Of a stretch of DNA of 64,000 bases, positions 25,135 through 64,000 are shown one piece after another. The number at the start of each line of letters is the position of its first letter. Positions within the stretch are counted from its first letter, which is position 1. The position numbers and the translations under genes are program-made. The stretch is from Lingula anatina (taxonomy: Eukaryota > Animalia > Brachiopoda). The DNA lies in contig CM120640.1 of NCBI GenBank assembly GCA_051362555.1, positions 20,522,001-20,586,000 of the forward strand, given 5' to 3'. The notes under the pieces are model-generated. The model made no database searches. It saw nothing but the letters and a program-made list of their open reading frames with translations, and was not told the origin of the DNA.

Positions 25135-27405
25135 TTATGACTTTTGATGTATGGCCATATGCCTCCTTAATATGGAAGCATCATTAAACTTTCTAGCACA
25201 CAACTGGCACTGAAATGGCTTTTCTCCAGTGTGGATACGTTTGTGGCGTGTTAGAGCACTTTTCTGTGTAAACCTCTTCTTACATTCCTCACAGGCATAT
25301 GGGCGCTCTCCTGTATGTGTTCGCATGTGCGTATTCAGTGCACCACGGGTGTGCATCTGCGTCCCACAGACTTGACACTGGTATCTTTTATGCTCGTTGT
25401 GGGTTTCCAAATGCTGTTCATAAGACCTCCTATAGTAATACGGCTTACAGCAATGTGGACACCAGTATACAGGGGTACCTTCATGCATTCTCTGATGCTC
25501 CAGTAAATAATACTTGCTGGCATATGCATTGCCGCATTGCTCACAGACATATGAGGGAGGGTTGGCACTGTGTGCCTTAAGTTTGTGTACCTCCAGGTAC
25601 TGTGCACTGGCAAATAATCTTTCACATAATTCACAACGGAAAGATTGAGATTCAGAGGTGTGTCGTTTTGTGTGCAAATACAAACCTACTTTGGTTGTAA
25701 ATTTTTTTCCACATATCCTACAAACATGCCTAACTTTGTAGTGAACTTTTTCCAGATGGCTTTTCATATCAGCTCTGATACCAAACATCTTGTCACATAA
25801 AGAACACTGTAAAGACTTCTGCAGGTGCTTTCTTTTCATGTGAACCTTGAAATGGCAACGGTATTCACTTTTAAAGTCACAGTATTTGCAGGATACTTTC
25901 CCTTTCTCTACTGTACAGTGAGGTTTTATGTTACTCCAGTTAAATGACTTCATTTTCTTAGCAACATCGTTCGTCTCTTTCATTTTTCTATCAATGCCAC
26001 CAGCATTCAGTGGATTGTCCTGTTGAGTCCTTATGGTGGAAGTTTGTTGAAATGTGTCACCAACAGGATTATTTTCCATTTGTAGCATGGTCATCTCACC
26101 GAATTCTGTCCCTGACTCAGCCCCTGAGTTTAGATTTTTCTCACATCCTTTTAAATGCGCCACCAAACCTGTTTTCTTGGCAAATTTCTCTCCACACTTA
26201 AGACATGGAAAATTACTTGGGGGTCTTTTCACCTTCTTTTTCCCACCACAACTATGCAATTGCAGGTAGTCTGACCGCTTATATGTTTTTCCACACAGAT
26301 GACATAAATATCTCAGCTTCCAGTGCTTACATGCCAAATGATCCTTCATGCTTGCTTTGTCTTTACCTACCAGACCACACAGAGAACAGACCCATTTCTC
26401 CAGCATATGTTCATTCATAATATGGTTACAGTAATCATTGCAAGTCTTTGAAATAACATCACAGAAGTCACACATTTGTTCATATTTGTTGGCATCTTCT
26501 ACTCCCAGGGCTACAGACTGTGAATTAGTGTTTTGTCCTTTCCTTGCAGCATTCTGTAAACAATACCTCTTCCTGAGTGGTCTGCCTAGAAGTACAAAAA
26601 GCACATATTTATTATTTTTCTGCATGGACGAATAAACTGCTAACTACAAATCATTGGCCATTCCTCAGTGTTTTCCTTCTTTTTCATATATTTTCTTGAT
26701 ACAAAAATCATTAAGAAAATCTTTTATCCCATGAAAAAGAAATTAACTTGCAATCTGTACTCCATCTTCTGTGTATTTACCTCTTTTCGTCCGTGGCATA
26801 ACTTTATGGAGATTTTCACCAGGGTCCATTTCATTGCTTTTATCTTCCTCTAAATGATGCTCTTCTTGGCTAACACGTACATCATTCTTTATACCAAGGC
26901 TCTCTGTCCATATTGGGGTGTGATGACTCGGAGCAAGTATTTTGGCACTGTTGTCACTTGCTGCAGTATTCATGTCTCTTATGACGCTACCTTGGCTGAT
27001 TTTACCAACTGTTGGATTTTGCATCACATAAGCTTCACTGTGCATTTGGCCAAGTTGAACAGGAATAGACGATGAAAAAGATGATGATGATGATGGTGTG
27101 CAATCTTTTGGGTCTGCGGACGAACTACAACCTTGTACTAACCTAGTCCCCAAATGTCGATCATACTCACTAGCTAAAGCATCATATAAATCACGCACTC
27201 CTTCCCAGCTACCTTGAACGTGGCACTGTTTAATAGGACTGTCATCATGGTTAGCGTCAAGTTGTTCGATTTTGCAGTCTCCGACGACCCAATTCTGACG
27301 CAAGTTCAGCACGCTGCTCAAGTCAGTGACAGTTTTTGTAGCATTGGGTATAGTCTGCAGAATTTCTTGGGCAATAATAGCTGTAACAGAAGTATAAACT
27401 GGCAT
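25135..27405 (-). CDS. C2H2 zinc-finger protein (~13 fingers, ~691 aa), two coding exons 27405-26781 and 26585-25135; N-terminal uncharacterised domain and AT-hook-like motif
   Basis: The two ORF-track ORFs (26743-27405, 25135-26625) join in frame through a 195-nt GT-AG intron (AAAAGAG|gtaaat ... tttttgtacttctag|GCAGA), giving PRTKRGRPLRKR. C-terminal fingers have canonical HTGERPY/HTGEKPF linkers. Confidence 0.9.
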
Positions 27406-28087
27406 ATTTGTACTAGTGCCCTCAGTAGGGAAAACCTAGTTGAGCGGCATTGATACATGTAGCGTATCGAAATAGAACTCCACAAGCTGAAGAGTTACGC
27501 AGATACGCGAAAGAGAAGTGAAGAGCTGTTCGTGGCTGCGCTCAAGAAATATTGAAAGAAGTAGAGTCTTCATCAACATCTGGTTTGATAATGAATTATT
27601 ACCTTTCATTCTTCATTTGATTGTCAATCTGCCAACAATACCTGCCTCATGAAAAATCCAAAGACATATGTATCGTCATTGATAACCATAGCCTACATTA
27701 TTAGGCCTACATGTAGGTGCCATATACATGTACAATATGTTTAAAACATAGAAAATTATGTAAATTCAAAAATAAATAAATAAATAAACAAAACAAATAA
27801 AATAAAAAAGAAATAAATAAAAAGAAATAAAAAACGCAATTAAATCTGAGAACATTTAAGGGGACAGTAAACCAGCTCGAAGGCCATCAACTGCTGCTCC
27901 CCCCTCCCCCCAAACCGTTCGTTTGCTCTACCTACGACACTGAAAACTAAAGGTAACAAGAAGCACTGAATGATTTAAAATACCTATTTTAGGCGACTAG
28001 ATGAGGGTGTGGACACTACTCGGGGTACCACTAAGTTTTTATTTATTTATTTTACTTTTTCTAACGCAAAAAAATCCCATTGGTTTT

Positions 28088-28363
28088 CAGTGGCGGATTT
28101 AGAGGGGGGTTAGGGGGTCTGGGCTCCCCCTTCGGTTACTGAAAATTATATCACACCAATATATATATTCCCTAGTGAAATTGACTAGCTAAATCATAGT
28201 TCTAAACCGTACCAAAGGGCACCGTTTGCTCTCCAAAACACCAAAAATTGGTCGGGGTCCTTGAGCAGCCACACCAAGGGTACGATGGTCGGCTTCGCCT
28301 CCGAGGCCTGTCGTTCCGGACCCCCCTTCCCCCCTCCTTCGAATAATCATGGATCTGCCCCTG
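28088..28363. mobile_element. MITE / non-autonomous DNA transposon with CAG(T/G)GGCGGAT...AT(C)TGCCCCTG termini
   Basis: Imperfect terminal inverted repeats cagtggcggattt / ggatctgcccctg flanked by a 5-bp direct repeat gtttt; G/C-rich subterminal tracts; related termini at 45404-45571. Confidence 0.75.
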
Positions 28364-42609: not shown

Positions 42610-45600
42610 ATGAAGATCCTGGAGGCGTGCTTTTTAGTTATTGTCATTACTGGTAAGCATAAAAAAGAAACTGTAGTATGAAAGATACCCCGTTTACGGG
42701 CCGTGCTACGGTACTGACATTAGGTCTGGTCGGGCAAATCGATTAGTTGTTTACGGGCTGGGTGTTATTTACCAATGTCAAAGGAAATGCGGCTACGCCT
42801 CCTAAGCTTTAGGCCGCCTCGGCATAGATCAACAAGGATAGCCCTACGCACATGTGTAAACTCACCTCTTTTGCAGTTAACATGAACTAAAGTAATGAAA
42901 TATTAAGTACCGTCAACCTCTGCATTTGTGTCTGTATGCTTTCTGTATGCTTTCGCAGTGAAATGCACGCGCGCACGCACACACAATTGAGTGTATTCAA
43001 AAAGACTGGAATGTAGGCCTACATGTATAATCTGGAATCAGATCTGTAGGCCTATGTAGGACCTGTAAAGCAAGCCCTTGATCAAACACAGGAAGGCGCT
43101 TTTGAAATAAGCGTTGGTTTAGATCATGGGGGAGGGGCAGCTGGCAGTGGTTAGATATTTCAAACAGTGTAATGTAGAAGGCGAATTGATGATAATGTGT
43201 TTCCAGTTGTTGGATGTCGATGATCAGTTTTTAAAGATAATCTAAGGAAAATATGATCCGTAGCCTATTGACACTATGTTGAGGAAAACACTAAAAGTCA
43301 TGTACAGGTCTTACAGGTGTTGATTTACGCTTATCCAAAATTATTGTAAATGCATTTAATGAGGCGGCCTTTGATAACCTCAAAAGGTGCTGCATGTGAC
43401 AGTTTTCTGCTGTGTGGTAACAACAAAATGCACTGGCAGGTCTTGGATTCAATTTTAGGGTGGACTTGTAATTATTATAATTATAATTTTATTTATTTAT
43501 TTATTTATTTATTTATATTGTTCTTTATATTAATCGTTCTTGGTGACATAAAACACCAACAGAAGATAATAATAACATGTAGTAACAACTTGACAGGGGG
43601 GTTTCAAACGTGTAGAGTCATTAAAGGAGATTTTTATTTTAGTACAAACTTTAAATTAGGCTTTTTATTTTGTTGTCAGGATGAAATTAATAGTTCACAG
43701 CTGGTGGTATGGGGTTCATCCAGTTTTGTGTCCATTGATTCATCAGATTTGAAATTTGAACATTTCCCACCTTAAAATTAAGTGCAAGTTAACCCCTTTA
43801 AAAATTTTGAATAATAATATTTTGGCAAATGGATGGCCCTGTTTGACACCAATGTATACACTAGTAAGGCACAAAAAATCTGGAAAAGCAATCACCAAAT
43901 ATAAAGGAATATAAGTAAACTTGAGACTACCACAAAAGACCACACAATTATTTTCAACTTTCAGTCACAAGAATGCTTATGCATAATACTTTTGTTTTCT
44001 GTTAGGACTTAAAAAATGGCCATGACAGATAGTTTTGGTTAACCAAAACCATTTTCATATTAAAAACACCAATTTCGACAGGCAGTATGAGAAAGAAAAA
44101 TAATACTAACAATTGATTAGTTAACATCATCAACTCAGAGTTACTGAACTAAATGCCTCTGCAGTAAGCACCTCTTTAGCATACCCATTTATATTATGTC
44201 ATTGGACAAGAGTTGCACACTCCTTTTGGATAAATTATTCCAAAATTTGTCAACTCTCTTGAGCTCAAAATGATCATCAGAGATTATACACATACATTTT
44301 ATCAACAATGTATTTCCATGGAATGTGTTGGAATTACATCTTGGTTTTATGCATATCTCATCAGAATATAAGAATAAGTACAACTAAAACAACCCACATT
44401 TCTTTAGTGAGCATTGCAGAGAAAATAACATCAAAAACATTATTTCCAGCTGTGCCTTCATTTTTGTTGTTGAGGCTATATATAACCCAGAAAAATACTT
44501 TTGATAAAATAAATTAAGATTTTCATTTTTTAAGCAAGTGTGTTTTTGTAAAGACTTATTTCTCATAATCACTAAATTAACATATCCTGACACATAAAAG
44601 GTCAGCTTTTATAGTAATATGCATATATTTTGCATCATATGCATATGTCCAGAAAACAGATCATTTACCATTTTTCAAAAAAAAAAAAAAAAAAAAAAAG
44701 GTGATGTACATTACATTGTCCTGTCACCTTTGACCATAGTCCAGCCCTTGTGACATGTGATAGACTACATGGCTACATGACCAGCACAGATTGCCACTGT
44801 TTTGAACAACTGCAATTAACAGCGAGCTCGCAGAATTCATGCAAGATTAATACATCCAGCATTGCTTTTACCTATCACCCACTGCTTTATGATAGGGTTT
44901 AGTGATTTTTCTTAATTACAGTGTCATGTGATGAATAAATGAAATGCCACCTCTGACCACCAGCCTCTTGGTTTATCATCCAGCATAAAAGAGAGGTGAA
45001 TGTAAAGATATATAAAAAAGAATCCCAGATTTTAAAGTTTGTTTTAGATATGATATCATGCATATGAAAGGGCAAGGAGGCACACGTGTGGCATAGGGCA
45101 TGTCACAGTCAATACAACTGCCTTTAAGAAGCCAACAAGCTGTTACTTGTAACATCTGAAAAGGATGTACAGAGCCCACCCTACCTATAAAACTGCAACC
45201 ATCTATTGATCCTACCATCATAAAGGAAGGAAGATGTTCTTGAATGACAATTGTTATTGTTAGATCTGAAAAAATGTTCCTGGATTATGGGATTATCTGT
45301 AAAAAGGAGCACCTTTTGGGGACTTACATTCTGAGACAGAGAAACAGTGAATATTTAGTAAGTGGAATGTGTGATTCTGTCATAGTTTTAATTTCTCAGA
45401 GATCAGGGGCGGATTTAGGCCGTCTTCTGGGTCTTCCGGAAGACGGTCAGATTTTCAAGTTTACATTGACGGGTATCTAATTTTTTTTGTCGGAAGACGG
45501 TCAAAAATGGAGGGTGGATTTATGAAAATAATTTGGAAGCCTGTGAGAAAATATCTCTGGATCCGCCCCTGTAGATAACTATATTTCTTGTATTACTGTC

Positions 45601-48600
45601 AATTTCATTTACTGCAAAATATAATTCTGTTGTATATGTAGCTTCTTGGGCATTTATTGGATGTAATATTTTATTGGTTTGTATTGTGGGCTCTGTTTTA
45701 ACTCAGTAAACCTATTTTTTTAGTCCCAGTTACTTTATAGCCTTTAGTGAATCTATAATTCCACTAACCCAGAAGAGATAAAGCAAAGAGAAAAACTAAA
45801 AGAACCAGCTAAACTGACAAAAAACACTGACTATTTTGACATGTTTTTTTATGGGAATCCAGCCAGACAACTCTCAGTAGGAACAAAAGAAACCAATACT
45901 TCTCTGTTTTTAGTCAAAGCATGCACTGTAGATGTCTTATTCTTTTAATTAAAGTGATGATGCAAGGGCTTCTTAAACACAAACAGTTGAGGTTGGTTAA
46001 GTTAGTATTGTGTGTTTAACCTCACTGCAGGGCCACATGGTTTGGTCTCTATAAAATGTGTGCTTTCAAAAAATGAATATTCAGTCTTGGAACTGTGGAG
46101 AGGAAATATCAGTATTGTAGTGTAGATTATCATTTTTACTGAAAAAGGGGTGAGTATATGGTGTAAAGGTACTAGCATATTTAGCATGTATCATATAGCT
46201 TGATTTCAAAAGATGGCCTGAACTGTGCTAAAATATCCCAGGTTGTGAAATTGGCTCACAATTTTTGCATTTTTGAAGGAATGCATATTTTTATTTATTT
46301 TTTGCTGAAGTTTTTTTTTCTAAAACCTCCATTTACATGTATCAATATTTAGGTTTATGTAGGTATAAATAACAGATTTTTTGTTTTTTTTAGCAGCTAC
46401 TGTAAACAGCAGTCCTATAGCAGATCATGACTTGTCAAATGAGAAAAGTGTTCACCGCAATCACCATCGAACACGACGGGCGACAGAAAATGAATACAGA
46501 CGGATGTCTCCATCAGACAGACCAAAATGCAAATCAGGCTCAACTGTAAGTTAAGTTTCAACCAAGAAATTTGTCATTTTAACATCATAATTATGTTCTC
46601 AAATGATGTGTATTCCAATGATATATCAGTTCCTGGCCTGGCCCAGTTTTTAGTGATTATTTAAAATCCATTGTGTGATAGAAATTAACTTGGCGTAGTG
46701 AAAAAGAAATAACAATAAAAGAAATGCAATTACGTGTACCTCTGTTTCAGATAATTTCGTTACAGAGTCGAGGTAGATTGCATTAAAAGGGTCAAAGTGT
46801 GGCAATATAATTTGTGTTGAACAGAAAAGACAGTGGTTGATAGGAAGATAACATAACTTAAGAAGTTTGATCAAGATAAGTTATCTTATTGCAAATACCT
46901 CTGTCCGTCATGTAACTGGGCAAAGAATTACAGACCATAAAAACATCTTATTTGTATGTGTAGGGGTAATGTGCTTGTAGGCAGGGGTGGGGTTACATTT
47001 CATGTTTGGTTGTGACATTTTCATTTCATAAGTATTAATTTAGCTATATGTAATAAGTTGAACTGATTCAACTATACTGTAAAGAGGCATTTTTAGTGTT
47101 TTTATACACTATTAGTTTAATCTTGGTTGAACCCAGGCCAGTTTCAATCAGTCAAAATTAAGCCACCTGACACAAGAACAGAACAATTAACAAGTAATTA
47201 AGCACTTTTAACCAAAGAGGTATGAATTAGTTAACTCTATTCCCATAAACATACATTTAGTCCTTGGTTGTAAAAATCATATAATCTGATTAAGTTGAAG
47301 AGTTTAGATCATTATAATTATATTGTTTATTTTAAAAAGTTGCTGCTTCATCTTGATTTTTTTTTGTCATTTGGCTTTTACATGATGTTTGTGAAGAACA
47401 GAAATACCCCCAAAGTTAATTTTTTACTTCATTTTACTTAAGCTTAGTTAATAATTTATGCAGCTCGTGTATTGTGTTCTGGCACTTGTAGAATTTTATG
47501 GCAGTGACTAGTAATTTTATCACTTAATATGCTTATTATATAACATGCCTTTAGACATGTACGCATAGCTTTAAAAATGACACACACACACACACACAAA
47601 AATTAAATATACTTCATTTTGCATTTAAATGTTAGTTTGCTCAGGGGTTGAACACTGTATGAGTACTTGATTAATTCATCCAAGTTTTTAAAATCATTTC
47701 TCAAAATATACATCAATGCAATTTCATCATCATTATAAAATTCCTGAAAAACTGACCATGAATTCAGTCAATCACATATATATATATATTTAAAAATAAA
47801 CTTCATTAAAACATATAGAGATGGGTAATAATATGATTTATTTAGATCCTCTTAGTTTGGTAGCACTGGCTTGTAGCCTGGATTGATCTCATGCTGAGCA
47901 CCAACATTCCAGAGTCTACTACATTGGTACCACTGGAATTCCACACCGTATATATAATGTTGATCCTTGCATCCTCTTTTGACCTTTTTCTCTCATTCCT
48001 GGAGGTAAAAAACAAAAACAGTGCTAAAAAAGGTGATAGGTAAAACAACCATCTGCAGATTTACCCCAATTATATTTGCTCCCTGCTGAACATACACAAA
48101 CAAGCCCCACTTGACCCTAATTGAATAGATAAAATGCAGTGACGTTGACGCCCATTGTTTTTGTGAAATGTCTTGAGGGGTCGCATGCTTTGTATGGTAA
48201 TGAAGCGGCATTTGTAAAGTTAATTTAGATTTTTTTTTGTGTCTGTATATCTAGTTGTATATTTTGACTGACAAGCTGAAGTAAAGTCTGTATTTCTTGA
48301 AGCATTGCATGGCCATCATCATCAGACAGTGGGAATCATAGCCCAAAAACTGGTTTAAAATGAAGTCAGGTTTTGTGGGATTTGGAAGAGAGCTAGTTCA
48401 GAAATACTTTTTATACATTATCTATATTTATTTTATATAAAAATATCACCTGAGAAAAAAGTTTTTTTTCACATAAATGTTAGTTGGACAAAAAAGGTAA
48501 TTTTTCTTTTTCTAATTTTCACAAGTCATACATGTATGGGAAGTTCTTCAGAAGGATAGCCCCTCCCTATCACATTTTCTCAGTAAGACATTTTTACCAC

Positions 48601-51600: not shown

Positions 51601-54600
51601 TTTTGCTTTTGTTCAAAGATGCCTTTTACCTGTGCAGGTGTTGATACTGTGTCATCTGCAAGGTGAAGTGGTGTCCTTGAACTCACAGTACTAACAACAA
51701 TACTGTGGTGGTGGTACTAACCAGCAGAGGACAGATCTTTTGCCATAAAATATTTGATAAAAGAGAAAAAATTTAGTTCAAAAATAAAAAATAAGTTAAT
51801 GAACGTCTTCCCCAACAGAAGTCTCTTTAATAACCCAAAGTCACATAAATTCAAAGTCACATTTGATTGGAAAAAATTACAATGTGACTGCACATTATAA
51901 ATTAAAATGATTTTTTTTTTTTTTTTGGTAATCAAAACTATGTTATTGTCATTAATATGCAGAAATAACAAATCAGCGTAATGCAATCAACAAGCCCTAT
52001 TTAGTAGCCATTATCTTTAGTTGAACCTGCATGCATAGGCACATGAGCTTGGGGAGGGGGCGTAGGCTAAGTTGCTTACCCCCTCTCCCTTTTACACGAA
52101 TGGTTAGTCCCCACTTCAAAGTTTCCAAATACGCATCTATGCATGTAGAGCTTCTAAATACAAACAACACTTTCCTTATCTTTGCACAAGAACTAGCAGA
52201 ATTCATTATAATAGCAAGTATTATGACTTTTATGAACTAATATATACTGTAGAGCATTACTAACCCTTATATAATGTTCAAGTAGAGCATGAGTAGTTTA
52301 TGCACAGCTTCACATCATGGCATCTTGAATAAGAGGCAAACAACTGCCAGATGTAAAGCTGTTTGTATGCTGCTTTACCTATCTGCTTTTTTTTAGATTT
52401 AAACTAACCAGCCCCTGCTTTAAGAACTACATGTAGGACTATTAGTTTCTGCTTTTAGGCCAGAGAAACCAATTAGCACTCATAGGATCTAGGATCATGA
52501 AGATTAAATCTGCTTTTGGACGATTCTTAGGACCAAAACAACAGCATGCTTTTTACTCTACAACCACTATAAATCTATAATTTACGTGCATTAAATATCT
52601 GCTTTCATGCCTAAAGCTAATTTGGAATCCTTTTAAAAACTTGCACAATATGCTATAATGGTGTAGTCTTAGGTTGCTAATAAAAATACTTCAAGTCTGA
52701 GAAAAGACTGAAATCAATGATACAAATAAATCAAAAATCAAAGTAACCTAAATTTATTTTCTAATTGGGGCTTCTTGAATTATAATTGTTTCAGCAGGCA
52801 TTGATGCATTACAGCAGTCATGTAACTTTTTTTTTTACAATTCCAGTTACTGGTATTGACAGGATTTTTGAATTCCTAACTTAAAGACTATTGAATTAAA
52901 TAATTTTTCAAATAAGCCCAAGGCATTAATGCAATAGTTCTCTTCTTGTCCTCAAAAGACATCCATCAGATTAAATTAACTGAACATTAAAAGAAAAATA
53001 AAGGAACTAATATTTTACCTCACAGCTGCTGTTGCCGTACAGTCAGATGATGACATTAAGGCGTGAGATACATAAAGTCAGAAAGTCTTAAATGGAAAAT
53101 TATGCAGCATTTACATAAAAATGACATTTGGCATTTATTTCTGTTCTCTTTGATCTGTGACAGTTGGAGGAGATCATGACTGCATGATCCATGTTATTAA
53201 GCATGGGTGTGGTCAACTGTATGACCACCAGCTGACCTGTTGCTACATGTCCATTCAAACAAGATGTATTCATTTAGGTTTCTCCTAAAATCCAATCATG
53301 ATTATTTCTCATCATGGAATTTAGTATTTCATATTTGATTACTTTAATTAAAATTTAATTATAATTTAATTTTTGAAAGAGTACATGTTTGTGACTATCC
53401 TACATTATTTTGATGTTGAACAATTTGAATGGATCAGTAAATAATAATAACTCCTGAATATTTTTTGGATCAGAATTATCAGAAATGACAAACAATTATT
53501 AACATCAAATTCATATTTTTAAATAGATATGAAAATGAAATTTAAGTGATTTTAACTATTATTACTTGATTGTATTTTCTCATGAAGTATATATGGGTTT
53601 ATATAATTTTAGAGCTAACAGAAACTTTTTCAAGCCTGAAAAGTGGACTGAATATTTTCAAGGAATGCATAATATGTCATATATAATACTGACCTGTAAT
53701 ATGTTGAATATCATTAAGTAAGGTTTTTACTAAAAGTTGACCTGATTCCAGGGGAGACTGGAGTCCCTAGTTCAACGGAATGGCTTGGCAGTCTTCTATC
53801 AGCTGGGGACAAGGTGGGAGCCAATCCTATACTCATGCCTATAGGTAATTTATACAGCCTAGGGTCATCCTGGCATGTCTTTCTGTTCTTCAAAAAAGTT
53901 ATAATAAAATTTGTCAAAAATAAATTAACGATTAGAAAATATTTAAACTTTACATAGATCACGGTTGGCATTTAATGAAAATATTTTACGGTAACAATGA
54001 GTTGGCACCATCAGGTGGAGATGACTAACTGTTTTACAGCTTGAATTATACGACCTTCAGGTTCAAAGAGGAGAGATACAAAAAAGCACTACCATTGCTC
54101 CAATTTTGTTTTCTGTTTTCTGTCGTGGTGGCACATCTTTTTCTGTTTCATGGTATTTGTTATGTGAAACCATATTAAAAATGAAACCATTGAAAATGTG
54201 GGCTGGTTATAAAGGACCATTCCCATACACTATCATACTAACTGTGGAGCGATCTCTCTCCAAAGGGATTCTCACTAAATTGTAATAAACTTAAGTGGCC
54301 TAGATGTCTGTCACACCTACTGAAGCTGCTAAGGGGCAATTAATTATTGTTTAGCAGCTTCAGTAGGCATGCCAGACATCTAAGCTGTTTAAGCTGAAAG
54401 CAATTTAGAGAGAAACTCTTTGGAGAGGGATCAAGCCTGTTAGATCGATTTAGGTATGGGAGTCACTTCTAACTCTCTGTAACAATCAAAACCATATTGA
54501 ATACATATTATCTCCCCAATTGTATCTAAACATTTTTCAGTTTACATTTCAATTAGTCAAATATTGTACTGATTTCAATATTCTAAAAAATTATCAAATA

Positions 54601-58231: not shown

Positions 58232-61200
58232 AATTTTGGAATTATCAGACAAATTTGAAGAGATAGCTACAAATTGTGGTCATATGGCCTGGTGAGATAG
58301 TAAAGTTCTAAACTAAGTTATTGTTGCTGGACTGGAAATGGCTTTTAAATTTATTAATAAAAATATTTCTGTATTTCAGAGATGGCACTACAGACGTCAC
58401 CAGGACCTTACACTTTGGGACCCCCACTGAGAAGATGAAACAGGCCTACACCCGTGTCTTAATGGGTGCTATTAATTTGGCTATGATGATCTGGCCAGAG
58501 GGAACATACGGTAAATATAATACTTTGTTACTCACTTTCTTTTACAAACTATGAAATATATTTTTCATCATGAGAAAAAGATTGCTTTCAAATTTTCATT
58601 TTAATGAAGAAAAAGATTGCTTTCAAATTTTCATTTTAATGAAAATAAAAAAGTGAACTCTTTTAACATCTTGGTGTGATCCATTCTGTAAATCTCCAAG
58701 TTAAATTCCACTTTAAGCAACACATTTACATCAGTGGACAAAATAGAAAGAACTTCTTGGTGATATTATTGAAAATATTTTAGTCAGTTATCGAGTTTTT
58801 TTCTTATTTATTTTATTGTCAAAAGGCCGTGAAATAGACTCTGCTGCAAGGGCACCACTGTGGTCATATGGATGGAACTATCGTCATGGCACTGGACATG
58901 GAATTGGAGCATTTCTCAGTGTTCATGAGGGTGAGCTGTCTTTAGGCTTGGTATTCATATGTGTGTTACAACAACCCTGAATTTCAAAGCAGGCATTCAG
59001 TCACTGAGTTTAACCAAACTTAATTTCATTCACAAGTCCAGTAAACAGCTGGTTTGTTCTATTGCACTTTAATCATCAAAAACAGTGAGTAATTTACCCA
59101 TTTTGAAACTCAGGTTTAGTTAACAGGTTTCTTTCTAGCATCATTAATTTTTCATATACAGAGACTATGTGTCTGTATATATTCTGATCACCATTTCTGT
59201 CCAAGTTGTCATTGTCCTACACATCTGTGGTCCTCCCTATAATTGCCAAACCATAATTTTCTAAATTAAAATTTAATAAAGATTTTTATTTGATGAAAAG
59301 CAATGTTGAGTTTTAAAAATATGCATAATCCTATTATTTTTTATGAAATAAATATACAATATTTTTTGCATGCATATTTGCAACATTTTTCCTGTTTGTT
59401 GTCTGTATATTTTCCAGCTTTGCTGTCTATTGTGTATACATATTTGATGGGGGAAATATTAAAATATCTCCTATGAAAGAAATATTGAAACAGTTACTCA
59501 TTTCAGTTCTTCATGAAGAATGTGAAATACAAAGCTTTTTAAATTTATTTTTGTAAAAAGAATTGAAAATCATAAACTATTTAAAATTCTGTTTCATTTA
59601 AATAGTTTTATTATGTATTGTTACAACAATGTCATTAACTTCTTTCATTATTTAAATGTCACTTTTAGGTTATGTCTCATATTTGACTTGATATCTCATT
59701 TCTTTTAGTTACATGTACAGTATTTTTTATCATTGAATATGATTTTACTACAATTTTCCTTATGTAATCTGATGTAAGTTCTGTAACATGAAATGATATG
59801 CTCTTAGATGCTGCCAAATCAGAGAACATTTTACTTAGTATAGATGCTTAATCAGGCTTTTTAATACTTCATTTCTGTCATCTGATAGTGTTTATATCCT
59901 AATAATTATCTGATATATGCAAAAAAACGTGTTATATCTGAACAATGCATTCTTTTCAGCATGAAAATCACCATGATACTCTTTCAAAGCTCCATTTATC
60001 TTGCAGTCTTACATCTTATATATATAACGCTTGTTCTACCCAGGTCCAGGCAGAATTTGTCTAGGATCAGTGTGCCCAGTACCCTCTACAAGAAGTGCAC
60101 TTTATGAACACATGTTCTTTTCTGATGGTATGGTATGGCATATGTAAATATGTATAATTATGTTTTTTGTATGTGTGGGTCACAGAAAGTCCTTCTGTAA
60201 ATTCATCTCTGATGCAAACAATGTGGGGAGCTAACATGGATGTGTGTGGTAATGGTTTCACACCACAGGAAGATACAGTGTGTGTAGATGTACTTATCAT
60301 GCAACTATATGTACCATTGCCCAGGCCATAATAATCTTTGGATGACAGAGGGAATAAAACTGACATTACAGCCACAGTGTTATGTGCACAGTAGCACCAG
60401 TTGGTCAGGGCTTCGTATCTCGAAAGGTTCGCTATGTTGCGCACGTGTGTTAGTGTCTCGATTCCATAACCGATTCTATTTCGAGATACGGGGCCATGAA
60501 ATCGAGACTCACTTGCACATATGAGCCCAGATTGTAGCATTGTGTTTGTTTGGTTGTGTTGGTGCACTGTTTCCAGTGTTTGCTCTCTTACTATCTTTGG
60601 GGAGCAACATCAGGCATGAAAGCAAAGCATGGATGTGTATTTTTGCATTCCTTATTTGAATGTTTTTTATATTCACTTGGAGAGTGAAATTTTCATATTG
60701 GGAAAATTTATTTAATCCTTGAAATTAGCAATTTAAATTACCAAAAGTCAAAGGAATAATGCAGCACATGTACTGCCAATGAACTAATTTAAAACAAATC
60801 ATTTACAACTTTTGCACATTAACTCAATTGCTATATATTGAAAAAAAAAGACTTTGCACCAACAAATCAAATAGATGGAACACTAACAAGAATTCATCTT
60901 AACATAAAAAATACTAACCTGTTAAATTACTCGAAAGCTTAACTGACATGAACAGCATAAAGTTAACATATAACATGGTCCCATGGTCCAAAAGTAATTG
61001 GACAAAACATGCACTCATAGTCAAGACAGGAAGACCTGCTGTTAAAGTACCCACATGTATCAACATTTTGTGCAAACATTGTGTGAAATTTTGTTCCACC
61101 TTGTTTGAAGGAGGGATCTACCAGGGACGTGTTTTTTAAAACATGCAGGAAATACTCCGATTATACAGCTTTTTGTCTTGTCATGCTGAAATGTGATGAA

Positions 61201-64000
61201 ATATGCACTTTCTTTCACGAACTTTGAATAACTTTATTTATCATATGAGAAAAGTTGCTTTCAAATTTTCATATACTTTTTTATCATCTTGGTGTGATTC
61301 ACTTAGTTAATCTTAAGTTAAATCACTAAATTAGTAGCACTTTTGCCAAAGTTCTTGTTGATATTATTATTTCTTATTGTCAAAAGGTCATGAAATTGAA
61401 AGGAAGTACCTTTAGTACACCCTGTATGTTTGGGAATTTTGTTTTGAAAAATTGTATAAATTTAATACTTATTCCAAACACCACAATTATGACAAGTTCA
61501 AAATGCCTTCATTTTCACCTAATCCAAGAAAGCAGACACATATAAACAAGAAAAAAGTGAATTAGAATAAACTGATTAATGAAATTGACCTGCACTCCTT
61601 GTTACAAAGAACCTCCAAGCAAACTTAAACTGTATCAGTTATATATTAGGGCAGTCATTGGCTTTCCGAATACATGTTCAGATGGAATCCATATTAATTG
61701 GCATTCATGGGCAACAGCAGATAGGCACAGGTGATAGCTACAACTTGCAAGTATGTAAGCAGCCTATACCTGTATTACAAGTTGGGAAATAACCCAGTGA
61801 TCATGCAGCTACATGCATCTCCAATACACAAACATCATTTTGGCTACTTCCAGATATCAAGCCATAGATCCTGGGCTGGTAGTGCATCCTGTCCAAGAAA
61901 TAAGACAAAAAGTTACGTACCCTCATATCTGTTAGAGTCACTATTATTTCAGGATATTGGGCTCTCATTGCAGCATTTCCAGCAAAAGTTCAATGGAACA
62001 AATCTCTTACCTGGATCTAGGACACATGCCTCATAGACAGTCATTAGCAACACAAAGGAGCAAGCTTCTAGAATTTGAATCAATGTGCTCAATTTGTTTT
62101 GTCCAATTTCAGGTCCCCCATATACTGTTTATAAAGCATATAGTGCACGGGATGGTCCTTTTGCTGCTGGCATGTTTTTGTCAATTGGTATGTTTCTTGT
62201 CAAATATTCTGACAAGATAATGCATGGTCTTGCTGTCTTCCCAATTCTCTTTGGCTGGTCCTTATGCAATTGCAATGGCAAAGAAATATCACTGACTCAA
62301 AGTGGGCATCCACATAACAATGCTAATACCACACTGTATAATAGTGGATATAGCTATTTGCAATGTTAGCACTGGCCGCACACACCAAATGCCTGTGAAG
62401 TTGCCCAAAGCTGGGCTTGTAGGCCTAATTCTTTTAAAGTTTGTTCAGTAACTGGCCAGTGTCTACTTATGGCCATTTGATTCCTTGACTCTGATGTCCC
62501 CAAGGGCACAGACTGATAAAGACTTGCCTGGATCAAAGGACAACACCTATACTGTACTTATATAGAGAAAGGACTGCTGTTTGTCCTGGTACAACTAGTG
62601 TCAGATCTTGATTGCAACCAAGATTTCCACATGTGTAAAATGGAAATCAAAAAGCATGGTGCCTTCAAATTTTGAATTGGTTCTTGGTTATTACCTACTG
62701 GAGTCAATTACATACAGATTATGAAGGTTTCAAGGATGAATTAAAGCAATGCAAGAACATTACTGAATGCAGTAAAGCCATGTCTTTGAAGGAGCAAGTT
62801 GAATTCATCCTTTGGACAAGTGCTTTTTTAACTAAAATTTCTCTTCTCTCCCTAACCTATATACCTGTTATCCCTTGACAAATTACTTTAATTTTGCATG
62901 AATGCTTTCCAAATAAAAAGTTTAAGCTTTACTAACATTTAGTTGCCAATGTTGGCCCTGCCTGCAGAAATTGCTACTATGTTGGCCCTGCCTGCAGAAA
63001 TTGCTACTATGTTGGCCCTGCCTGCAGAGGAAAAAATGGCTTGTTTTACCTCTGCCCAGGGAGTTCGCTAGTGTGTCTTCAGGAAAATAACAACTAACAT
63101 GCATGTTTATAGGGCCAGCAAGCATTTCCTCTGGTACTAGCCCTTTGCGATCCCCACTATATGAAGGAATGTTTTTGTCAGATGGTATGTAAAGAATAAT
63201 ATGTTTGAAATATTCTGGTGGAAGTTAAAACTAGTTACAAATAGAATTTTAAATGAAAGCTGTTCAATGTCAAACACAATTAATAAAATTTAAAGCATCA
63301 TTGGCATCTTCAACTATGTTTGACAGCCAGCTAAGACTATTCAGACATTTATATTAAATAAATTCACTTGGTAACCTTTCTCATTATCAACAAAATATAT
63401 ACAATGGGTAGAATTAACCATACAGAAGTAAATGTTTGTTTAAATGTTATTTACTAAATACTATCCCATCTCTAACATACATGTTCACTATGCTTAAATG
63501 GTCATTTCAAATTTCAGTTCAGTTTTGATTTATTTAAATATTAAGATGAACAGCTCATTCTAAATTGTGTAAGATACCATGATATCATTATCATGTTTTT
63601 CCTGTTCTTGGTTTTGTGTGAAGATTATTACACTATAGTACTGATTAATATTTCATATAATTTTTCTAACTTGAATATGTACATATATATATTACAAATA
63701 CCCACTATTTGTATCTACATGCACACCTTTACAACTACCTTTTGTCTCATTGCAGAACCAGGTTACTATGAACCTGACCAGTTTGGAGTCCGTCTAGAGA
63801 CTATAGTCATGGTGGTCAAAGCAAATACACCAGTAAGTAATTTTGGGCAAGATGCTCTAGTATAGTATCAGGAATCATCTCCCTTTTTAACACATTTAAA
63901 ATAACTGCAAACAAACATGTCAAAAAAAAAAAAAAAGAGTTGTTTACAGCACCATTTGTATTACATATTGAAATGGGCTGTTATATTTCAGAACAATTTT
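42610..64000 (+). CDS. XPNPEP1/2-like: Xaa-Pro aminopeptidase (aminopeptidase P, peptidase M24B), signal-peptide-bearing XPNPEP2-like form; 3' end outside window
   Basis: Frame-consistent exons: 42610-42652, 46394-46545, 49091-49207 (IPTEDAHQ), 49885-49948 (SEY...ISGFSGSA), 50448-50552 ([12 protein letters not shown]), 53752-53844, 54632-54781, 55072-55167 (TALDETA), 55488-55569 ([14 protein letters not shown]), 56118-56223, 56570-56773 (LKAVKNQVE), 57136-57186, 57400-57464, 57771-57920 ([17 protein letters not shown]...LLDSGGQY), 58380-58510 (DGTTDVTRT), 58826-58930 ([17 protein letters not shown]), one of three alternative exons, 63756-63832 (EPGYY...FGVRLE), 63992-end. All five metal ligands (D, D, H, E, E) are present. 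Confidence 0.95.
45404..45571. mobile_element. MITE with CAGGGGCGGAT...ATCCGCCCCTG terminal inverted repeats in aminopeptidase intron 1
   Basis: Perfect 11-bp TIRs; flanks gagat / tagat (5-bp TSD with one mismatch); internal duplicated cggaagacggtca. Confidence 0.8.
54221..54461. mobile_element. Fold-back (palindromic) MITE-like element in aminopeptidase intron
   Basis: Arms tcccatac...gatctctctccaaagggattctcactaaattg...tagatgtctg...cctactgaagctgctaa and ttagcagcttcagtagg...cagacatcta...caatttagagagaaactctttggagagggatc...gtatggga are reverse complements around a short spacer. Confidence 0.75.
55368..55417. repeat. (ATATA)n microsatellite
   Basis: About 10 pentamer units. Confidence 0.9.
60044..60127 (+). 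CDS. Aminopeptidase P alternative exon A ([28 protein letters not shown])
   Basis: cccag|GT acceptor, GATG|gtatgg donor, 84 nt, phase 1-1, joins VHE-G to E-PGYY in frame. Confidence 0.88.
61206..61400 (+). pseudogene. Decayed duplicate of the aminopeptidase intron 58533-58825 and the start of exon 58826
   Basis: cactttctttcacgaactttgaa...atgagaaaagttgctttcaaattttcat...catcttggtgtgat...ttattgtcaaaag|gtcatgaaattga matches 58533-58839 (...ttattgtcaaaag|gccgtgaaataga); reads GHEIE versus GREID and then hits a stop. Confidence 0.75.
61994..62024 (+). promoter_or_regulatory. Putative splicing selector I (antisense to exon A 3' splice site), ~90 nt upstream of exon B
   Basis: taggaca (62018-62024) pairs with tgttcta (60032-60038); cctggatc (62010-62017) with ggtccagg (60043-60050); acaaat (61998-62003) with atttgt (60055-60060). 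Function is inferred. Confidence 0.6.
62113..62187 (+). CDS. Aminopeptidase P alternative exon B ([25 protein letters not shown])
   Basis: tttcag|GT acceptor, ATTG|gtatgt donor, 75 nt, phase 1-1, same GP...MFxS boundaries as exons A and C. Confidence 0.88.
62504..62543 (+). promoter_or_regulatory. Putative splicing selector II (antisense to exon A 3' splice site), between exons B and C
   Basis: aggacaa (62537-62543) pairs with ttgttct (60031-60037); ttgcctggatc (62524-62534) with ggtccaggcag (60043-60053); gggcaca-ga-ctgat (62504-62517) with atcagtgtgccc (60066-60077). Function is inferred. Confidence 0.65.
62949..63028. repeat. 30-bp tandem repeat (atgttggccctgcctgcagaaattgctact) x2.7 upstream of alternative exon C
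   Basis: Identical units starting at 62949, 62979 and 63009. Confidence 0.95.
63113..63184 (+). CDS. Aminopeptidase P alternative exon C ([24 protein letters not shown])
   Basis: ctaac branch-point-like motif, tttatag|GG acceptor, GATG|gtatgt donor, 72 nt, phase 1-1. Confidence 0.88.

Follow-up and report, generated by a model that had tools for sequence, protein, structure and literature searches.

The window analysed here, a stretch of 64 kb from the brachiopod Lingula anatina, carries the 3' half of an Xaa-Pro aminopeptidase gene on the + strand; all exons and pairing elements described below are given in + strand coordinates. RefSeq isoforms used as tblastn queries were placed over positions 42610-63832, and the L. 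anatina protein XP_013414158.1 was 98% identical to one exon of the window. The aminopeptidase showed the Pfam domain set PF01321/PF16189/PF00557/PF16188 and matched 3ctz with an E value of 1e-174. Both the domain set and the active-site motifs fit a eukaryotic aminopeptidase P (XPNPEP), which the gene can be taken to encode. For the region 42610-46548 we noted by eye that the protein starts with a hydrophobic leader and closes with a hydrophobic tail. These features suggest a form that, like XPNPEP2, is secreted or held by a GPI anchor, despite the RefSeq name XPNPEP1.

Near its 3' end the gene contains a tandem cluster of three variable exons. A constitutive upstream exon (58826-58930), which ends with the residues VHE and has the donor GTGAGC, is followed by exon A (84 nt, 60044-60127), exon B (75 nt, 62113-62187) and exon C (72 nt, 63113-63184), and then by a constitutive downstream exon (63756-63832) starting with EPGYYE. 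Both constitutive exons were located by tblastn with a RefSeq isoform and by RNA joints. The three variable exons are already part of the RefSeq annotation, and each of the five RefSeq proteins contains exactly one of them: A in X1, X2 and X5, B in X3 and C in X4. How well the encoded residues match RefSeq (28/28 for A, 24/25 for B and 24/24 for C) carries no information here, since the catalytic exons on either side are nearly identical too.

Four of 21 raw-read runs were used, namely the DNA runs X5 and X11 and two RNA runs labelled L. anatina, of which about 6% and 25% were read. Exon A was joined to the upstream exon by five reads in each of the two RNA runs and to the downstream exon by ten and nine reads. 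Run X12 showed no other variant, and in run X18 exon A had the strongest read support. Joints of the other two exons came from run X18 only: upstream to B with four reads, B to downstream with two, and upstream to C with five. These junction counts are small. The 15 joints that were listed, out of 17, included no A to B, A to C, B to C or skipping joint; read depth was low, and a joint needed about three reads to be listed. Exons A, B and C are thus real alternatives which form a mutually exclusive tandem cluster of homologous exons in the same phase.

What enforces the choice is less obvious. All three exons are in phase 1-1 with lengths divisible by three, the introns between them measure 1985 nt (A-B) and 925 nt (B-C), and the AG-free zones are 28-39 nt long. 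Given these intron and exon lengths, neither the reading frame nor steric clash explains the choice. The initial annotation, made from the sequence of the window, had given the same frame preservation and spacing and had dismissed nonsense-mediated decay and steric clash as enforcers, and in this it was right.

In an alignment to solved structures the variable exon corresponds to the part of Caenorhabditis elegans APP-1 that lies between His496 and Glu522, that is the loop between the active-site histidine and the metal-ligand glutamate. Both are described as active-site residues of APP-1, and the inhibitor apstatin has its C-terminal residues directed at the loop 505-509 (PMC4404410), where Arg505 is reported to flip so as to contact apstatin (PMC10377022). 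It is likely that the A, B and C isoforms differ in substrate preference.

As a source of exclusivity the initial annotation had proposed competing RNA pairings in which two intronic elements, selector I and selector II, are complementary to the acceptor of exon A. The site in question (60031-60077) straddles the boundary between the first variable exon and the intron before it, and comprises the pyrimidine tract, the AG at 60042-60043 and a 5' portion of exon A. The segment is GC-rich (51%) and self-complementary, and it finds partners of -35 to -41 kcal/mol across the window. Since positions 60043-60068 can form a hairpin of their own, cores of the type shared by the selectors are easily found. 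Bulged chance hybrids reach -40, and for this reason raw RNAduplex energy was dropped as a discriminator.

Against this background selector II (62504-62543) stood out. It can form a predicted duplex of 34 bp and -44.9 kcal/mol with the exon A site, made up of helices 60031-60037/62537-62543 (7 bp), 60043-60053/62524-62534 (11 bp), 60059-60062/62520-62523 (4 bp) and 60066-60077/62504-62517 (6 + 6 bp with a bulge of 2 nt). The duplex extends over 34 nt of exon A and also takes in the G of the AG together with the pyrimidine tract. In a scan of the + strand of the 64 kb with 50-nt partners in steps of 10, selector II was the best partner, the runner-up reaching -40.7. In a model of stacks and small loops it scored -43.1, a level reached by none of 1647 dinucleotide shuffles of 60128-63112. 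This part of the original proposal was confirmed. With the whole cluster as target 2 of 300 shuffles reached the observed value, with a longer query of 74 nt 12 of 300, and in an alignment restricted to Watson-Crick pairs 58 of 1000. The latter two counts indicate that the signal depends on G-U pairs and on where the boundaries were drawn.

Positional controls gave a similar picture. Among 199 queries sliding through the cluster, the A-selector II pairing was the strongest long-range duplex, and elsewhere in the window only 4 of 2400 control queries matched its level, all of them short-range inverted repeats whose arms are separated by about 200 nt. Strong inverted repeats of such spacing were noted at 54220-54440, 28066-28320 and 25288-25530. 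Random synonymous recoding of exon A equalled the duplex in 3 of 2000 trials, while for eight chance partners the figure was 8 to 210 of 400. In accessibility-aware cofolding selectors I and II were the top two of 181 windows (z scores of -3.9 and -3.6). The second-best windows of nine control acceptors, consisting of 7 of the 13 located constitutive acceptors plus exons B and C, were weaker at -2.3 to -3.0. All four unconstrained folds that contained selector II formed the duplex. Neither selector lies under high-copy contigs of run X5, and the DNA runs X5 and X11 yielded no contigs over either of them. The selectors paired poorly with the corresponding parts of exons B and C (-15 to -25).

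The reads also bear on the site. In run X18 the synonymous change T60057A was present in 11 of 11 reads and was the only exon A variant among those listed. It falls in a loop of the A-selector II duplex and leaves its strength unchanged. Among the changes listed from two runs, exon A had one and the three flanking exons 18; as the substitution counts cover listed changes only, this low variation was left out of the evidence. Against the proposed masking, exon A had the best read support of the three variants despite its strong predicted mask.

It might be argued that all of these pairings are chance matches or the remains of a neutral, decayed inverted copy, and that exclusivity is enforced by splicing proteins. 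The promiscuity of the docking segment with its many partners across the window would be in line with this, as would the choice of the site after the fact and the lack of such a duplex in clusters of the same exon in other animals (see below). The shuffles (0 of 1647) and the positional controls speak against it, and so does the fact that the best duplex of the cluster falls exactly on the acceptor of a variable exon. We regard a pure chance origin as improbable. The predicted A-selector II duplex is well supported in silico, exceeding chance under most of the null models, and it is probably functional. We infer that it forms in the cell and affects splicing.

The case for selector I is more complicated. 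In its original form, with a core at 61994-62024, it can pair with the exon A site at -28 to -31.6, so the complementarity as such exists. It fell below the best 15 partners in the window and ranked fourth in the cluster (-27.7, compared with a mean best value of -28.4 for shuffles); in plain alignment 338 of 1000 shuffles did as well. Shuffled sequence thus does as well as selector I as drawn, while it does not account for selector II, and the expectation that both would head the list held in cofolding but not for the energies. The core cctggatc..aggaca that had been taken to unite the two elements is found in both, but the similarity between them was at the level of chance (123 of 1000 shuffles).

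An extended form of selector I (61923-62029) fared better. Among 100-nt windows of the A-B intron it ranked first with -49.6 (6 of 146 shuffles) and the top partner in cofolding. Folds of nascent transcripts suggested that this pairing would be transient. It appeared in six of seven folds ending between 62050 and 62130 and in none of four ending between 62200 and 62480, and beyond 62560 it was replaced by selector II. The pair probability of its core was 0.76 and dropped to 0.01 once exon B had been made, and in longer folds the pairing cost 8.8-12.8 kcal/mol. In the one exception among the seven, a fold starting at the upstream donor, selector I paired with 59051-59070 instead of exon A. Nascent exon A folds contained 49-54 distal pairs and 23 control folds at most 30; the control folds cannot count as independent, and a free 3' end finds partners readily. 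Folds of 2-3.7 kb are in general unreliable and biased towards pairing of the free end. The pairing of selector I with exon A can therefore be called borderline and predicted to be transient, and a function for it is conceivable but somewhat doubtful.

If selector I is a chance match, the A-selector II duplex would be a single long-range mask promoting C, and B would be chosen by virtue of a stronger acceptor or by proteins. By eye, the pyrimidine tract of the B acceptor indeed looks best. Selector I does not exceed the null models for energy, alignment and similarity, and T60057A would break its pairing with exon A, weakening it by a computed 3.7 kcal/mol if selector I itself is unchanged. 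Selector I also has a local partner about 140 nt away, the element 61865-61876, which pairs either with selector I or with 60059-60068. The segment 61867-61876 had been put forward as a nested helper of the docking interaction; in full folds it pairs with selector I itself, which makes it more a competitor than a helper. This simpler scheme does not account for the extended selector I as the top cofolding match or for its presence in six of seven nascent-transcript folds, and we consider it rather unlikely.

The classical arrangement would include an intronic docking site separate from the exons. Such a site was sought upstream and downstream, and the best candidates, 59195-59245 and 59051-59070, stayed within the background of control blocks or shuffles. 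The latter occupies the classical docking position and can form an AU-rich helix of 18-19 bp with 61985-62004, the 5' part of selector I; its energy was at the level of chance (251 of 500 shuffles). The segment 59193-59245 pairs with 60218-60272, and also near 63058, in the second-best long-range duplex of the cluster. This duplex flanks exon A, and control blocks usually yield a best match of about the same strength.

Several repeats were noted in the same introns. A high-copy, MITE-like hairpin element occupies 60405-60508 of the A-B intron, with contig depths in run X5 adding up to about 29,000, and more repeats are found at approximately 59147-59204 and 59386-59429. The A-B intron also contains, at 61239-61399, a decayed copy of 58572-58838 from the intron preceding the upstream exon, with 26 nt at 88% identity and a longer extent that was judged by eye.

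Exons B and C might have masks of their own. The segment 60996-61009 can form 14 Watson-Crick base pairs with 62095-62108 and thereby cover the pyrimidine tract of B. A 30-nt tandem repeat at 62949-63038 is a candidate mask of C, each unit forming 11 bp with the acceptor of exon C (63110-63120). All three variable acceptors could form a perfect helix with an energy of -22 or lower, compared with 1 of 16 constitutive positions, one of which was misplaced; the comparison was post hoc, and the shuffle counts for the variable acceptors were 38, 22 and 14 of 500. We treat both masks as leads only.

A network could be imagined on this basis that has no separate docking site: each acceptor would possess its own complementary element, and crossing helices would pick the free one. 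The helix counts just given fit this idea. The C mask appears in the global fold and was reached by 5 of 300 shuffles. The A-selector I pairing crosses the B mask, and the A-selector II pairing encloses it. On the other hand, the B mask, a weak lead, was present in none of the folds checked (probability 0.0), and the B acceptor lacks a strong bulged duplex (77 of 300 shuffles). Run X18 reads A at 63114, inside the C-mask helix, and breaks this helix unless it is compensated. With a post hoc comparison behind it as well, the network seems quite improbable. It is likewise improbable that the whole cluster is run by splice-site masks, selector II taking over the A acceptor from selector I as transcription advances and the handover timing A, then B, then C, while B and C have masks of their own; this would be an independent invention of the Dscam1 balancer that switches the substrate loop of an enzyme.

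Our preferred reading, to which we would assign a probability of about 0.5, is that selector II masks A, loops out B and favours C, while extended selector I briefly masks A and so favours B. Exon A, being transcribed first, would be the default choice. About 1.9 kb later extended selector I would briefly mask A during the synthesis of B, favouring B. After 2.5 kb selector II would replace selector I, so that the A acceptor is hidden, B is looped out and C is favoured. Such a device would resemble the Ubs6.1-Dbs balancer of Dscam1 and would probably tune the ratio of A:B:C rather than act as the sole enforcer of exclusivity. Transcripts that use A also skip B and C, and for this an extra layer would be needed, either weak local masks or proteins. 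The model of the initial annotation leaves unexplained both how an unmasked A would go with suppression of B and C and why C is suppressed when B is chosen, and as a full account with the pairings as sole enforcer it is somewhat unlikely.

The closest known counterpart is found in fly Dscam1. Ubs6.1, as described in PMC8791459, is the intron-exon boundary of the first exon 6 variant and pairs competitively with several downstream intron elements. The pairing masks the 6.1 acceptor and boosts exons past the partner, as supported by covariation and in vivo mutants (PMC8791459). The balancer is reported to act even when the docking site is deleted (PMC8791459; PMC12962786), and among the pancrustacean Dscam1 genes surveyed in the second of these sources the Ubs6.1 type occurs only in flies (PMC12962786). 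In Lingula, too, the acceptor boundary of the first variable exon is predicted to pair with a downstream intron element, and it may do so with a second. The initial annotation had considered a docking site overlapping a coding exon and its acceptor to be an unusual variant; this view is weakened by the same layout in Ubs6.1-Dbs (PMC8791459) and by other systems that mask splice sites. There are differences as well. Ubs6.1-Dbs supplements an intronic docking site in a cluster of 48 exons and is backed by covariation and in vivo mutants, whereas the Lingula cluster has three exons, belongs to an enzyme gene of a brachiopod, has no clear separate docking site and is described in silico only.

In human ATE1, which also has mutually exclusive exons, a 3' splice site is obstructed by the competing pairings R1/R3/R4 (PMC7797038). 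There two acceptors compete for one intronic element, while the Lingula layout is the inverse, one acceptor with two predicted partners. Drosophila PGRP-LC (RE/CE1/CE2) has a docking site at an exon-intron boundary and two similar downstream selectors, and a splice site is masked (PMC6191721). In that gene the 5' splice site is masked and terminal 3' cassettes are picked, whereas the Lingula site is a 3' splice site. In Dscam1 exon 6, 14-3-3zeta and Mhc one docking site serves several complementary partners, and splice sites are brought together (PMC6071210, PMC11802352). These classical systems have an intronic docking site and a selector for every variant, unlike Lingula, where the shared site overlaps exon A and the selectors are not alike beyond chance. 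We would predict that the Lingula cluster works like the Ubs6.1 balancer, of which it is a candidate member; it is likely to be a convergent, non-arthropod case of Dscam1-type acceptor masking. A literature search found no publication on the cluster of this gene (supplements and most subscription papers were outside its scope).

Protein comparisons revealed that isoforms of Pomacea, Oratosquilla and Macrobrachium vary at the same exon position, while the mussel and oysters vary a segment one exon upstream instead. An ortholog of the Lingula cluster was absent from 59 metagenome loci. Of the 23 loci examined in detail, four possessed tandem copies of the exon with introns of 56-165 nt. Three copies are present in the related, animal-like loci L039 (reverse strand, oriented 627-1071) and L044 (2104-2579), with introns of 161/56 and 165/83 nt. 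In both loci a conserved stem lies in the first intron and could reduce its effective length to the steric range. Two copies, 65 and 63 nt apart, are found in L033 (oriented 1235-1431) and L026 (652-888), a spacing consistent with steric exclusion. The duplex at the first acceptor was absent from all four loci, where 30 to 187 of 300 shuffles reached the observed value. Long-range pairing is hence not a trait of the family. To judge from the sequences, duplication of this exon is recurrent across animals, and the four metagenomic duplications appear to be independent; the literature search listed no paper on it.

If the preferred reading is correct, the masking of the acceptor of a first variable exon, proven in fly Dscam1 and called fly-specific, would have arisen independently in a metabolic gene of a lophotrochozoan, and the coding sequence of exon A would be constrained by RNA pairing. 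With three exons in 5 kb, the cluster would also be a far easier minigene than one of 48 exons in which to ask whether masks alone give exclusivity. The same exon has been duplicated or is alternatively spliced in a snail, in two crustacean genera and in several metagenomic animal loci, which suggests that the loop of the enzyme facing the substrate has been tuned repeatedly.
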